DNA from: Simkaniaceae bacterium
Lineage (GTDB): Bacteria; Chlamydiota; Chlamydiia; Chlamydiales; JAJFMI01
Assembly: GCA_040880145.1 (NCBI GenBank)
Contig: JBBDIZ010000006.1
Coordinates: 1 to 48,515, forward strand
Direction of reading: 5' to 3'
DNA: 48,515 nucleotides
The notes below the pieces were generated by a model, which had not been told where the DNA came from, ran no database searches, and saw only the letters and a list, made by a program, of their open reading frames with translations. The translations under genes and the position numbers were made by a program. Positions 207 to 16,455 of this stretch are shown here, one piece after another (position 1 is the first letter of the stretch; the number at the start of each line of letters is the position of its first letter).

Positions 207-237
207 TGGAGGTGGTTGGGCGCGTTCAGAACTTTTG
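207..237 (+). repeat. att-like site copy 1 (tmRNA 3' core plus recombinase-tail sequence)
   Basis: TGGAGGTGGTTGGGCGCGTTCAGAACTTTTG, identical at 2170-2200 and 6247-6277; first 9 bp equal 16050-16058 (tmRNA 3' end). Confidence 0.9.
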
Positions 238-394
238 ATTGGTTAAATATGGGGCTCGAGCGCATCCGAACTCATGTTAAAATTGTCCGGAAAGAGGTGA
301 ATTTGGCGATTTGATATGTTTAACACTATCAAATACTTGTATTTTGATAGGGGTAATGCTATCATAAAGATAGAGATATTGGAGGAGCCTGCTC

Positions 395-862
395 ATGAAA
401 AAGCCTAAACAGTCGGAAAAATCGCTTCTGGAAGGGGTTGCAAGTTCAGGATGCGACTTACGACAGAAACAACGGGGTCTTGAGATAGGCCAGCTCATAG
501 CTCTTATTCGCAGCCAGCTTAGCATGTCACAACGTGCTTTAGCAAAAAGAGCAAAAGTTCCTCAATCAACCATATCGAATATAGAATCAGGACGACTACA
601 ACCCAATGTTTCCACCTTAAAAAAGATCTTAAACTCAATGGAGTGTGATTTACTTATAAGCGTTCTTCCTCGAGAGGAGATTGAGATCATTCGAAGAAAC
701 CAGGCAGAGGCAAAGGCCAAAAGATCGATTCAGTATCTAGAGGGGACCATGAGCCTGGAAGCTCAGAAACCGGACAATGGATTCTTGCATGAGCTAATCA
801 AGGAGAAAATGAAAACTCTATTGGACTCTTCGGGCCCGGAACTATGGGAAGATGACTTGTGA
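395..862 (+). CDS. XRE-family HTH protein, mobile mystery protein A-like
   Basis: Cro/C1 HTH (MSQRALAKRAKVPQSTISNIESG), C-terminal GTMSLEAQ and LW motifs; stop overlaps the next ATG (TGATG). Confidence 0.8.
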   Translation: MKKPKQSEKSLLEGVASSGCDLRQKQRGLEIGQLIALIRSQLSMSQRALAKRAKVPQSTISNIESGRLQPNVSTLKKILNSMECDLLISVLPREEIEIIRRNQAEAKAKRSIQYLEGTMSLEAQKPDNGFLHELIKEKMKTLLDSSGPELWEDDL

Positions 863-996
863 TGTTCTCCTGTCCAGAAGGCGCAACCCCCATTGATGAT
901 ATCAGCGGTCTCAAGCCTTCTTGGGTTAAAACACAGCAAGACTTGAACATAGTCGAGGCTGAGAATATCTCCACTGCAGTTAGCAAATATTTATGA
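862..996 (+). pseudogene. N-terminal fragment of mobile mystery protein B (Fic family), interrupted by IS605-type MITE
   Basis: MFSCPEGATPIDDISGLKPSWVKTQQDLNIVEAENISTAVSKYL*; GATP...L..E.ENI motif; stop created at the IS junction; Fic core missing. Confidence 0.75.
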
Positions 997-1257
997 CTGC
1001 CCGCGGGAAAACCCACCTCTTTAGGGGTGGGATGAGAGCGTATTAAATTTTTGTTTCGTATTTTTGTTTTTTTCCATAATCTGTTAAACTACACTCACCT
1101 TTTTAGGTCTACCACGGGGCTCGTGGGATGTTAAGCCTTTGGAGACTGTGTAAGACTTCCCGTTCCTAATGGAACCGAAAGCTACGGTCTGAGAATTAGG
1201 AACCCTAAACGTAAGAATAGGGAATCCCACTTGCTTTAGCAGTTGGGAGGATGTCAA
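995..1257 (+). mobile_element. Non-autonomous IS200/IS605-type element (263 bp) with left end, probable omegaRNA region and right end; no tnpA/tnpB
   Basis: Follows TTAT; left-end hairpin CCCACCTCTTTAGGGGTGGG; right end GAATCCCACTTGCTTTAGCAGTTGGGAGGATGTCAA; similar left end at 48466, also after TTAT. Confidence 0.85.
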
Positions 1258-1295
1258 TGAGTCTTTTGACGTAAGCAAAAAAAGGATAGTTGAAT

Positions 1296-2105
1296 ATGGC
1301 ACATAGATTGGCCGGCAAGGTGGTACTTATTACTGGAGCAGCTCAAGGTATAGGGAAAGCATGTGCGGAGATATTTGTAAAAGAAGGCGCATTTGTATTT
1401 GTCACAGATATTAATGATGATTTGGGAAAAACAACTGCTTTGGCTATCGGCTCTCAAGCTCAGTATCTCCATTTAGATGTTGAAAATGAAAGCAACTGGG
1501 ATGCAGTGATACAACAAGTAATTAAAGAAAAAAAACATTTAGACATTCTCATCAATAATGCTGGCATTACAGGATTTCAAGAGGGGCTTGGGGTGCAAGA
1601 CCCAGAAAATGCTTCTTTGGATAGCTGGAGAAAAGTGCATGCAGTAAATTCAGATGGTGTTTTTCTTGGTTGTCAGAAAGCAATTCAGCACATGAAAGAG
1701 AGCAAAGGTTCGATAGTAAATATCTCATCTCGGTCAGGTATGGTCGGGATTCCCGGAGCAGCTGCCTATGCAGCTAGTAAAGCGGCTGTTCGTAACCATA
1801 CAAAGACTGTTGCTCTGTATTGTTGTGAGAAAGGGTATAATATTCGTTGTAACTCTATCCATCCCGCTGCTATTTTGACACCTATGTGGGAGCCAATCTT
1901 GGGTAGTGGAGCGGAAAGAGAAGAAAGATTGGCTCTGATTTCCAAGGATATTCCAATGCATAGGCTGGGAACCCCAGAAGACGTAGCATATGCGGCGCTT
2001 TTCTTGGCTTGTGATGAGTCAAAATATATTACTGGTATTGAATTGACTGTAGATGGAGGCATTCTTGCGGGAAGTAGCGCTCCTCCTAAAAAGGAAGTCG
2101 AGTAG
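1296..2105 (+). CDS. SDR family oxidoreductase
   Basis: TGAAQGIG, NNAG, YAASK, DGG motifs; ATG at 1296 preferred over TTG at 1290. Confidence 0.95.
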   Translation: MAHRLAGKVVLITGAAQGIGKACAEIFVKEGAFVFVTDINDDLGKTTALAIGSQAQYLHLDVENESNWDAVIQQVIKEKKHLDILINNAGITGFQEGLGVQDPENASLDSWRKVHAVNSDGVFLGCQKAIQHMKESKGSIVNISSRSGMVGIPGAAAYAASKAAVRNHTKTVALYCCEKGYNIRCNSIHPAAILTPMWEPILGSGAEREERLALISKDIPMHRLGTPEDVAYAALFLACDESKYITGIELTVDGGILAGSSAPPKKEVE

Positions 2106-2169
2106 GGGCAGTCCTAAATGCGTACAAACTAGATTAGTGAAATAAGCGATTTTCCCGAGCCTTTTGTAT

Positions 2170-2200
2170 TGGAGGTGGTTGGGCGCGTTCAGAACTTTTG
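2170..2200 (+). repeat. att-like site copy 2
   Basis: Identical 31-mer; TATTGGAGGTGG (2167-2178) also matches 16047-16058. Confidence 0.9.
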
Positions 2201-2494
2201 GATGGAAGATTCTAGAGGGACGTTTGTCTGAATTCCATCGTAACCGGACTTCATCCCCAATAATTTGAGGAAACAGTTTATCATCGTTTTGAAGAAAAAT
2301 ACCAAATATATCATTATTTTTGAGGATTAATAACGGTTTTGAGGGCTTTTTTTATACTTCTGTGTGTTTTTTTAGTTAGAAGAGACATTTTAAAAGTAAA
2401 TTGCATGAATAGTCATTATTCCGAAGTGAAAAACCCGAAAAATCAATATTTTGATGGAGAAATAATCGATTTTGAGATATTTTTGTAAAAAGCG

Positions 2495-14933: not shown

Positions 14934-14967
14934 AATCTTCTCCTAAGTCTAAGTTCGTATATCTGAT

Positions 14968-14996
14968 ATTGTACGTATACGTATTAATTCTGTCTA
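14968..14996 (-). promoter_or_regulatory. Promoter of the VOC-EVE-MarR operon with a palindromic operator
   Basis: TAGACA-N17-TACAAT on the minus strand; palindrome TACGTATACGTA at 14972-14983. Confidence 0.6.
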
Positions 14997-15031
14997 CAGA
15001 ATTCAGGATTTTAGATTTTTCAGAAAAGCTA

Positions 15032-15063
15032 TTGACCCTAACGTATGCGTCATTGTGTATATT
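15032..15063 (+). promoter_or_regulatory. MerR-type long-spacer promoter
   Basis: TTGACC-N20-TATATT with imperfect dyad TAACGTATGCGTCA in the spacer. Confidence 0.6.
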
Positions 15064-15107
15064 GAGAGCATCTTTTAAAATCATAGGGATATTAAAAGGA
15101 TGAAGGG

Positions 15108-15887
15108 TTGATGGCTTATACAGTTAAAAAATTAAGTGAACTCTCAGGAGTAACGGTTCGGACTCTCCACTTTTATGAAGAGGAAGGTCTCCTTAAACCC
15201 TCATATTATGGGTCTAATGGGTATCGGTATTACGAGGAGAAAGAGCTGCTCGAGTTACAACAAATCCTATTCTTCAAGGAGCTTGGTTTTACGATAAAGC
15301 AAATCAAGAAAGTTATAGGAAAGAGTGATTTCGACCAGCTTTCTGCTCTTTATTCGCATAAAAAATCTTTGAGTCAAGAATGGGAGAAAATTGGACAACT
15401 GCTTAAGACCATCGACAAAACGATCAATCATTTAAAAGGAAAAAAGAAAATGAAAGATAAAGAAATTTTCGATGGCTTCAATATCACATTAGTAAAAAAA
15501 GCAAAAGGGCATGAGTCTTACTTTGCTGCAGAAGAAATTGTCGGTAAAAGTGTAAGAAACCCGACTAAGAATGCCGAGGATGTTGAGAAAAGAGGCAAAG
15601 CATTTTATGAAAATGCTACAGAGACAGCACATGTCATTTTCAGGGAACTTGTTCATTGTATTGAAAAGGGATTGGTTCCAAGCTCTTCCGAAGTGCAACG
15701 TATTATCAAAAAACATCATGCATTTACAGACAAAATCCAGGACGCAACTCGCGAAGTTTATAGGGCAATGGCTCAGCTATATCAGGAACACCCTGAGTTT
15801 AGAAAGCAGTTGGACCCGTTCCATCCAAAACTTGCTGAGTTCATGTCTGAAGGAATGATAATTTTTGCAGATAAGGAACTAAAGTAA
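15108..15887 (+). CDS. MerR family regulator with TipAS-like C-terminal domain (Mta/TipA-like)
   Basis: YTVKKLSELSGVTVRTLHFY; NGYRYY; LQQILFFKELGF; C-terminal Y..LA..Y...F. Confidence 0.9.
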   Translation: MMAYTVKKLSELSGVTVRTLHFYEEEGLLKPSYYGSNGYRYYEEKELLELQQILFFKELGFTIKQIKKVIGKSDFDQLSALYSHKKSLSQEWEKIGQLLKTIDKTINHLKGKKKMKDKEIFDGFNITLVKKAKGHESYFAAEEIVGKSVRNPTKNAEDVEKRGKAFYENATETAHVIFRELVHCIEKGLVPSSSEVQRIIKKHHAFTDKIQDATREVYRAMAQLYQEHPEFRKQLDPFHPKLAEFMSEGMIIFADKELK

Positions 15888-15968
15888 GGATATCGAGGTA
15901 AGGGGTGGAAACGCCCCTTATTTTTTTACGCAAATTTTACGCACTAGACTGGAAAAAACTGGCAAAAA

Positions 15969-16023
15969 GAAACCCAAGAGGGACTAAACGATTTGTCTTT
16001 AAATCCTTTAGTTTCTTGGGTTT
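15969..16023. terminator. Long imperfect hairpin downstream of tmRNA (terminator-like or att arm)
   Basis: AAACCCAAGA..ACTAAA.GATTT...AAATC.TTTAGT.TCTTGGGTTT; preceded by direct repeat TTTTACGCA x2 near 15924-15943. Confidence 0.5.
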
Positions 16024-16049
16024 ATTTACTCTGGCTTACGCCAGTTTAT

Positions 16050-16455
16050 TGGAGGTGGAGAGAATCGAACTCTCGTCCTTAGCAAACTTACGACTAGAAA
16101 TGACTACATGCTTAGTGCCTTATTCATTTAGGTGATAGCCCTGTTGTAAGGCACCCCACTTGGAGCTAACACCACCCTTTTATTTCTCGAAAACGGGCCC
16201 AAAAGATAAAAACCTGTCTCATACCAAGATTGATAACGATAGGTAGGGAGTCCTTGGTCTAACTCCAAGCTATCGGGCACTCAAAACGGTTAGGTCTTAA
16301 GCAGCCATTGCAAACTCTGCTGCAGGTTCCCCTGCACAGAATTTTACGACTTTAGTGTTGCCGTTTACATGTTTTGCCGGATGATTTAGGAGGCCAACCG
16401 ACGTCCTCCGCATGCCATTTATAGGTAGCTCCCAAGTCGAAACCAGTTCACCCCC
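16050..16455 (-). ncRNA. ssrA: tmRNA
   Basis: 5' GGGGGTGAACTGGTTTCGAC; 3' GAGAGTTCGATTCTCTCCACCTCCA (T-arm and acceptor); tag ORF 16362-16297 GNTKVVKFCAGEPAAEFAMAA*. Confidence 0.97.

Follow-up and report, generated by a model that had tools for sequence, protein, structure and literature searches.

Islands that stack behind ssrA, the gene of the transfer-messenger RNA (tmRNA), are known from Dehalococcoides. The report on these ssrA-GIs describes tandem islands bounded by a 20-bp repeat of ssrA sequence, next to which is a motif foreign to ssrA, and carrying a CcrB-like serine recombinase at attL; some of them include no integration module and were read as either mobilisable in cis or fixed (PMC3146451). 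These tandem islands, followed by the SCCmec arrays, can be considered the closest published analogues of the locus described here, which lies in a 48,515-nt DNA stretch of a Simkaniaceae bacterium (GCA_040880145.1, genome G000). This stretch, named the window when taken as a whole, starts at base 1 of contig C6 (JBBDIZ010000006.1); the array is possibly cut on its left. Literature searches, which did not cover subscription journals, returned no description of such elements in Chlamydiae. The region between nucleotides 207 and 16049 is very likely an array in which at least four integrative elements, now decayed, have accumulated downstream of ssrA after insertion by one Chlamydiota-wide family of large serine recombinases (LSRs).

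The array is marked by an identical 31-mer, TGGAGGTGGTTGGGCGCGTTCAGAACTTTTG, found at nucleotides 207-237, 2170-2200 and 6247-6277, in all cases on the plus strand (0 copies expected by chance, 100 shuffles). No further copy with up to three mismatches is present in the window, and in the whole assembly (1.26 Mb, 40 contigs) the 31-mer occurs only in these three places. The tmRNA gene is full-length and is encoded on the minus strand at 16050-16455 (ARAGORN; Infernal RF00023, 140 bits); its 3′ end reads on the plus strand TGGAGGTGG followed by AGAGAATCGAACTCTC, the latter being the T arm side. Nucleotides 1-9 of the 31-mer are the antisense of the tmRNA 3′ end (16050-16058), a sequence that includes the 3′ strand of the acceptor, the discriminator and one T-stem base and that we consider the integration core. 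The identity to ssrA ends after these 9 nt, the other 22 nt being unrelated to ssrA and showing no alignment with the T arm. A first-pass annotation, made by inspection of the letters, had started from the three exact copies and the match of their first 9 bp to the antisense tmRNA end, and both were confirmed by the sequence, ARAGORN and Infernal. The 9-mer TGGAGGTGG is found four times in the window, always at a 31-mer or at the ssrA end, while the expected number is 0.19. The spacings along the array are 1963, 4077 and 9803 bp, and the units share no sequence beyond the 31-46-nt repeat. The flanks, previously described as unrelated, are so in general, with the exception of copies 1 and 3, which are identical over 37 nt; conservation at junction 1 extends to about nucleotide 242. 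The 31-mer itself shows no fold. A strong hairpin precedes copy 3 only (6218-6237, fold z-score −3.8), and two of the four junction regions show a folding no better than that of shuffles. Hairpins are frequently found next to the site in both genome and metagenome loci. The 31-mer is an attR-type junction consisting of 9 nt of the target 3′ end and a 22-nt element arm, named here the P arm, and belongs to a Chlamydiota-wide family of LSR integrative elements.

A search for the 31-mer at up to three mismatches in a sample of 401 Chlamydiota genomes identified 20 carriers, G000 included. In 12 of the 20 ssrA is present on the same contig (G000, G392, G387, G380, G268, G133, G026, G328, G073 and G194 by ARAGORN, and G123 and G292 by Infernal), with the site located 0.6-9.2 kb downstream of the ssrA 3′ end and, as in the window, always on the strand opposite to ssrA. 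The site is not scattered, and flanks shared between genomes switch partner exactly at the 9-mer; the original proposal, which a scattered 31-mer or breakpoints away from the core would have refuted, thus withstands this check. More than one site can be found at a single ssrA locus, as in G328 (four, within 5.5 kb of ssrA) and G268 (two). Conservation reaches about 36 nt and its left edge is sharp at the 9-mer; the consensus nucleotide at position 14 is A, and all window copies have G. The core varies between genomes. In G292 the tmRNA end is CCGCCTCCA and the core of the distal site is TGGAGGCGG; in G100 two sites with the core TGGGGGCGG are located 10-11 kb downstream of a tRNA-Tyr gene with the 3′ end CCGCCCCCA, and this core is the antisense of that 3′ end. 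Since the cores of G292 and G100 match their own targets, the 9-mer follows the target and the 22-mer remains unchanged. A possible link between a site in G180 (contig C26) and a tRNA-Met gene 3 kb away was dropped because the 3′ end of this tRNA mismatches the core. We make no claim that the P arm is conserved for coding, as the variants GAC/GAT, GCG/GCA and GAT/GAC are a mixture of synonymous and non-synonymous changes and stop codons are sometimes found directly after it.

Intact elements are found in relatives. In G292 a 497-amino acid (aa) protein with Resolvase, Recombinase and Zn_ribbon_recom domains is encoded next to ssrA, and the 31-mer is found 9.2 kb away on the same contig. The LSR gene runs towards ssrA and overlaps the 3′ end of the latter, and the element also encodes a DUF927 protein and a SpoVG-like protein. 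The G044 LSR shows 70% identity to that of G292 and has the same position at ssrA. Elements of relatives follow a general plan: they measure about 9-11 kb, the end nearest ssrA is occupied by the LSR gene, which is convergent with ssrA and whose final codons cross the junction into the antisense tmRNA 3′ end, and the P arm, TTGGAYGCGTTCAGAACTTTTG, is at the far end. Members of the LSR family were detected in 74 of 400 sampled genomes (E ≤ 1e-30), many of them fragmentary. Among the 29 of the 30 best LSR loci that were passed to ARAGORN, the neighbor of the LSR 3′ end is tmRNA in 11, tRNA-Tyr(GTA) in six, tRNA-Leu in one and tRNA-Met in one, and no tRNA or tmRNA was found in ten; G292 adds a twelfth ssrA-adjacent LSR. 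The junction sequence of all 12 ssrA-adjacent loci is CCACCTCCA, or CCGCCTCCA in the case of G292, and then A(T/C)T..TTGGA(C/T), where TTGGAY repeats the beginning of the P arm in inverted orientation, and in all 12 the recombinase at this attL is an LSR. The chlamydial LSR scores far under the cut-offs of the CcrA, CcrB, CcrC and XisF models (NCBIfam CcrB, 73 bits versus 900), and its nearest solved relative is the A118 integrase (E 7e-6). The arm behind ssrA at attL, named the P′ arm, includes the inverted repeat TTGGAY-N10-RTCCAA followed by ATCGTT, with GGAC/GTCC and GGAT/ATCC versions both present; this repeat may be a terminator for ssrA located inside the antisense LSR coding end, or a protein-binding site. 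The intact G292 element also contains a fragment of UPF0137 (PF03677; locus L048, 199-510), which we take to be a family of chlamydial plasmid proteins and which hints at exchange between plasmids and LSR elements.

The window retains a relic of this recombinase, an LSR pseudogene at 11962-12555 on the plus strand, which is the only LSR match in the assembly. It shows 80% identity to residues 1-199 of the G044 LSR and 74% to that of G292, has a stop at codon 15, just past the catalytic motif, and a second one close to codon 169, and breaks off around residue 199 of 496; no remainder was found. A quick IQ-TREE tree was built with 28 LSRs and the window relic (L074 and L094, which include no long open frame, were omitted). 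The relic is found within a 14-row clade (SH-aLRT 99) that includes all 12 ssrA-adjacent LSRs and none of the six tRNA-Tyr LSRs. Host families are mixed inside the clade, which indicates transfer between families. No Phage_integrase domain was found in the 17 window open reading frames (ORFs) scanned and the window includes no intact recombinase. The first-pass annotation was thus correct in stating that no unit keeps an intact recombinase, and its proposal that serine-recombinase elements integrated repeatedly at ssrA is supported by the ssrA-linked carriers, the LSR genes adjoining ssrA in G292 and G044, and the identity of the relic to them. The small gene at 9778-9996 (plus strand) encodes a MerR/HTH_17 excisionase-like protein (Pfam; TIGR01764, 27.8 bits versus a cut-off of 28.8), a candidate directionality factor.

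The element attachment site was never observed directly, and the attP sequence GTCCAACCA-ATTGGAGG-TGGTTGGAC was rebuilt from attL (12 loci) and attR. The reconstructed attP has 9-bp inverted repeats, an 8-bp spacer with CC/GG at its center, and 9 nt in common with ssrA; the CC is directly before the discriminator. The tRNA-Tyr elements retain the GTCC-18 nt-GGAC geometry. This short site, with imperfect inverted half-sites, a central dinucleotide and few identical bases, has in its reconstructed form the layout of an LSR site, and the crossover would be placed at the CC before the discriminator. A P′-core-P match among the genome contigs (L100) was discarded as a chance match, since it falls within a long ORF and no P arm accompanies it. 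In the integrated element the LSR tail is ..CPTN-WRW-RESNSR*, ending in antisense ssrA, and the circle form is predicted to read into the P arm as ..WRW-LDAFRTFD.., so that integration should swap the tail of the LSR.

Comparison of junctions between genomes places the breakpoints at the core. Nucleotides 78-215 of the window match DNA abutting ssrA in G194, and nucleotides 15926-16058 match a metagenome locus, L158, where the same sequence abuts the P arm; both alignments end with the 9-mer. Between genomes, one and the same flank with its 9-mer thus adjoins ssrA in one case and a P arm in the other. No P′ arm was found anywhere in the window, where all junctions consist of the P arm (or ssrA), the core and unrelated DNA, nor was a P′ arm found to the left of the core in any of 62 metagenome junctions (54 distinct) or in the 32 genome junctions listed. 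The lack of a P′ arm opposite any junction is in keeping with an LSR for which attL is no target. The genomes G001 and G002, of the same family, keep the ileS-ssrA arrangement and share almost nothing downstream; one degenerate site was found in G002, 1.28 kb from ssrA, and none in G001. An ABC-F gene flanks the site in G392, and no ortholog was found at any G000 contig end (best match, 34% identity). Logan contigs from the public runs X1 and X2 break at the 31-mers. A joint from 2199 to 207 (going back 1993; one contig, with a 37-nt side) is uninformative because a 31-nt repeat in a k-mer assembly gives the same result, and joints from runs X3 and X7 (e.g. 6236 to 16045, with 20-27-nt sides) were disregarded because they belong to other organisms.

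The array could have been generated as follows. The reconstructed attP would recombine with the last bases of ssrA, leaving the tmRNA intact and giving as products an attL, consisting of ssrA, the P′ arm and the LSR gene, and an attR, consisting of the P arm, the 9-nt ssrA end and the former downstream DNA; the 31-mer would be this attR. If the LSR pairs attP only with attB, the occupied site, attL, would not be used again. The resident element would then lose its P′ arm and LSR gene by deletion, and the conserved ssrA half-site, now placed before arbitrary DNA, could serve again as attB. The next element would enter between ssrA and the remnant, and repetition of the process would stack remnants, each with a distal attR scar. 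The order of arrival, with the newest unit nearest the tmRNA gene, would follow from this model. Because every recombinase in the window is gone or broken, the array is immobile at present unless an incoming element supplies the enzyme.

Several observations weigh against this explanation of the array. The window includes no attL, and the proximal junctions at 16049, 6246 and 2169 carry unrelated sequence, so that a deletion of the P′ arm and the LSR gene must be assumed for each remnant. Random deletions do not predict the shared start modules, namely 15926-16049, which is found also in L158, and the flank of the type found at 78-206. The downstream half of attB is not conserved, although LSRs normally need both half-sites. 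The rare G at position 14 is shared by the three window copies, which is not obviously expected from independent arrivals of diverse elements. No excised circle or attP junction was found, the count in metagenome contigs being 0 with a stricter pattern, and the placement of the crossover comes only from the symmetry of the reconstructed attP. Seven of the 20 carriers have no tRNA or tmRNA on the stretch examined, most of these being short contigs or contig ends, and none was found in the 15 kb scanned in G335. The searches recover well-conserved copies only, and the sharp conservation of the P arm is in part a consequence of this.

Some of these features would be explained if the array had come, wholly or in part, as a composite, which we regard as a possible but less favored origin. 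An intact LSR element would have excised together with older remnants, by recombination of attL with a more distal attR, integrated as one, and later lost its recombinase end, accretion thus preceding mobilisation in cis; the difference from stepwise accretion is only in the place where the stacking occurred. Such an arrival would agree with the same rare G variant in all three 31-mers and with the recurrence of the 124-nt start module and the 9-mer beside the P arm in L158. It would also agree with the presence in other families of blocks with identities above that of IleS (74%), such as the short-chain dehydrogenase gene (93% DNA identity with G044) and the MarR-EVE-TipAS proteins (81-89% with G123). 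The same process was proposed for Dehalococcoides islands that include no integration module by McMurdie et al. (2011, PMC3146451). On the other hand, neither a composite circle nor a second genome with the same unit order was found, and the units differ in G+C content (35-54%) and in their closest relatives (G044, G123, G073), which suggests separate histories. Two readings without an LSR have little to recommend them. It is very improbable that the repeats are products of tandem duplication in place or of homologous recombination, or that they serve as a motif for regulation or termination, without any site-specific recombination: two neighboring units of G328 do open with nearly the same 60 nt and hairpins are often beside the site, but the units have only the 31-46-nt repeat in common, the motif is absent elsewhere in the genome, in other families it is linked to ssrA or tRNA-Tyr and its core changes with the target, and the 31-mer is unfolded. 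That the units are tRNA or tmRNA islands of tyrosine integrases, the 31-mer being a displaced fragment of the ssrA 3′ end, can be practically discarded. The ssrA gene is indeed a common target of these enzymes, as described in the Islander work; however, only 9 nt match ssrA, the other 22 nt cannot be aligned with the T arm, no Phage_integrase is encoded by the 17 ORFs, an LSR is found at attL in 12 of 12 ssrA-adjacent loci, and the attP spacer of 8 nt is even, as expected around the central dinucleotide of an LSR.

One could speculate that units without a recombinase are still substrates, as they carry the P arm and core at one end and an ssrA-type core at the other, and that incoming LSRs could excise, capture and re-insert them in trans; we consider this rather unlikely. 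Equally speculative is the view that follows from it, that the chlamydial ssrA 3′ end could be an integron-like capture platform of serine recombinases through which defense, toxin-antitoxin and Fic cargo is traded between families. The start modules shared beside ssrA or the P arm, the three identical P arms with the rare variant, the lack of any junction with a P′ arm and the small one-gene units of G328 are consistent with mobilisation in trans, without showing that it occurs.

The individual units are built as follows. Beyond the last junction, nucleotides 78-206 have 79% identity over 141 nt (blastn) to DNA behind ssrA in G194; this flank includes an imperfect hairpin, similar flanks are present in G392, G387, G044 and metagenome loci, and it probably is the original flank downstream of ssrA. 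Unit 1 encompasses nucleotides 238-2169 and includes a gene at 395-862 (plus strand) encoding a mobile-mystery-A-like HTH_3 protein (Pfam; TIGR02612, 66 bits, under the cut-off of 122.6) with 60% identity to the product of a gene of the G044 element. It is followed at 859-993 (plus strand) by a stump of 45 codons of mobile mystery B (Fic), with 78% identity (tblastn) to residues 1-45 of a 234-aa Fic protein of G044 that matches TIGR02613, the mystery B model. Of the mystery A/B pair reported in the first-pass annotation, the A-like protein stands, with a score under the cut-off, and B is reduced to the stump. A 268-nt high-copy segment, 991-1258, lies exactly at the point where the mystery B gene is cut off. 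In the runs that hold the locus best, this segment and 5585-6155 in unit 2 have a contig depth of about 5× that of their neighbors, and in one Logan contig nucleotide 1041 is linked to 5583, 18 additional letters being in between; the two segments look like a miniature derivative and a truncated copy, respectively, of one multi-copy insertion sequence. The unit also includes a short-chain dehydrogenase gene at 1290-2105 (plus strand; Pfam; 93% DNA identity over 878 nt to G044 by blastn), whose counterpart in G044, a genome of another family, adjoins the 31-mer.

Unit 2, nucleotides 2201-6246, opens with a gene for a 512-aa Fic-domain protein at 2495-4033 (plus strand; PF02661, E 5.7e-14). It further includes a relic of domains V and VI of a group II intron at 4362-4438 (plus strand; RF00029, a match of 49 bits that exceeds the gathering score), which no intron ORF accompanies, an ORF of 354 aa at 4434-5498 (minus strand) with no Pfam or NCBIfam match, and at 5626-6198 (plus strand) a truncated transposase gene, of which only the N-terminal HTH is left (Pfam HTH_28/29/32), also at about 5× the contig depth of its neighbors.

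The units were first estimated at about 2.0, 4.1 and 9.8 kb; the spacings are as stated, and the third unit, of 9.8 kb, combines two or more elements and is made of the blocks 6278 to about 9500, about 9500 to 12555, and 12556-16049. The G+C content is 35-41% in the first block and 50-54% in the second. The first block, unit 3a, includes a gene at 6352-7206 (plus strand) encoding a protein with HTH_3 and SocA/Panacea domains of antitoxin type (Pfam), an ORF of 124 aa at 7199-7573 (plus strand) encoding a putative ParE/RelE-like toxin (ESM Atlas feature score of 0.90 to ParE clusters), and a gene at 8045-9070 (plus strand) encoding a RhuM-family protein (Pfam, E 4e-109); RhuM cargo recurs beside the P arm in G073 and G392. 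The toxin assignment is a lead from a language model only, as the ORF has no Pfam or NCBIfam match. Of the genes first named as unit openers, the long Fic, the HTH-Panacea and the RhuM genes are supported by Pfam, and the RelE is reduced to the Atlas lead. The candidate toxin-antitoxin cargo consists of an antitoxin of the HTH-Panacea type with a putative partner from that lead, and a mystery A/B pair that has lost B.

The second block, unit 3b, encodes the excisionase-like protein, the LSR relic and between them, at 9993-11965 (plus strand), a Schlafen AlbA_2/HATPase_c_4 protein, and by its synteny can be identified as the ssrA-proximal end of an element like that of G044, where a gene with 69% identity to the Schlafen/HATPase gene is located beside the LSR gene. 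The Schlafen gene is split by a perfect 53-bp tandem duplication (10156-10261) that shifts its frame, and three degenerate 33-nt repeats are present in its C-terminal part (11565-11663). The third block contains unit 4 (12594-15887), located between the LSR relic and ssrA, with Pfam matches to TetR (12594-13241, minus strand), SnoaL (13299-13649, plus), MarR (13672-14142, minus), EVE (14139-14561, minus) and MerR-TipAS (15108-15887, plus). A 2.2-kb segment, 13691-15890, recurs in inverted orientation in the ssrA island of G123, with a DNA identity of 80%. A 124-nt module at 15926-16049 abuts the ssrA 3′ end and has 93% identity over 133 nt (blastn) to L158, where the P arm adjoins. The 12556-16049 block lacks its own distal junction, and its fusion to the LSR relic must therefore be the result of a deletion; with this extra block the array holds at least four elements. 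The signs of decay in the window are then the LSR pseudogene, the Fic stump, the truncated transposase, the gene split by a duplication and the relic of the group II intron.

Some observations in other genomes illustrate the behavior of these loci. In G328 (contig C23, 8502-9132; L043) the first 60 nt that follow the core are near-identical in two adjacent units, pointing to a local duplication or to an unequal exchange in which sites of one array took part. In G100 (contig C10, L062/L056) a second, partial tmRNA (47 bits) is located 2.6 kb after the complete gene and is followed by a hairpin flank of the type found at 78-206 in the window, and a RhuM gene is close by; the arrangement resembles an ssrA insertion of another kind, one that duplicates a long 3′ part of the gene. 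Copies of the site are often located 0-300 nt from contig ends (G194, G180, G292, G343, G387). The repeat probably breaks short-read chlamydial assemblies, and as a consequence arrays are under-represented in metagenome-assembled genomes.

The acquisition of foreign genes by obligate intracellular chlamydiae is poorly understood, and this locus and its relatives point to one concrete route, in which one family of LSR elements targets, in many chlamydial families, the invariant 3′ end of ssrA and those of certain tRNA genes and deposits its cargo there in stacks. Among the cargo found are genes for Fic, RhuM, toxin-antitoxin and HipA proteins, for Schlafen-type ATPases and for regulators. The 22-nt P arm can be used as a simple marker to find these islands in fragmented assemblies of metagenomes, in which contigs often break because of it. 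An LSR that is compact and has a natural target both short and conserved might serve genetics in Chlamydia-related bacteria.

When compared with other known systems, the array resembles integrons in being a row of small co-oriented units with no recombinase, often of one or two genes, that share the same end site and a fixed insertion point. It differs from them in that no IntI tyrosine recombinase is found in the scanned ORFs, there is neither an attC hairpin nor a promoter-proximal platform, and the units are larger elements that have decayed. In the Myxococcus phage Mx8 (IntP/IntX) the attachment site is inside the integrase gene. The chlamydial LSR is alike in that its ORF crosses attP and integration would alter the C-terminal tail, here as read from the sequence alone, and unlike in that the Mx8 enzyme is a tyrosine integrase. 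The traffic of elements at ssrA is reportedly treated in Williams 2003, ‘Traffic at the tmRNA gene’. With the islands that tyrosine integrases insert at tRNA genes and ssrA, the array has in common the ssrA hot spot, the formation of arrays and the supply by the elements of the sequence behind ssrA, and the differences are the recombinase family and a much shorter identity block here. The staphylococcal SCCmec and composite SCC arrays at rlmH/orfX (CcrAB/CcrC) also involve LSRs, insertion at the 3′ end of a single-copy gene that is conserved, elements stacked with short repeats between them and members without recombinase, but their target is protein-coding and two recombinases are usually needed, and the chlamydial LSR is far below the Ccr cut-offs.

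The likeness to the Dehalococcoides ssrA-GIs includes the tandem arrangement downstream of ssrA, which is found also in G328 and G268, the LSR gene beside attL and islands with no module. The repeat is 9 nt at the extreme 3′ end of ssrA here, versus 20 nt with insertion at the T-loop there; the adjacent motif is 22-28 nt versus 15 nt; and a single LSR with an ORF that crosses the att site is found here, versus DsiB and DsiA in a six-gene module. No second small serine recombinase was found among the nine G292 ORFs scanned. The phylum and the cargo are also different, tRNA targets are used as well, and the window recombinases are all dead. The principle has thus been published already for Dehalococcoides and staphylococci, and the window holds only dead remnants of it. 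Because it relies on a single LSR and has its core at the last 9 nt of ssrA, the chlamydial array is an analogue of the Dehalococcoides type and not a member of it.

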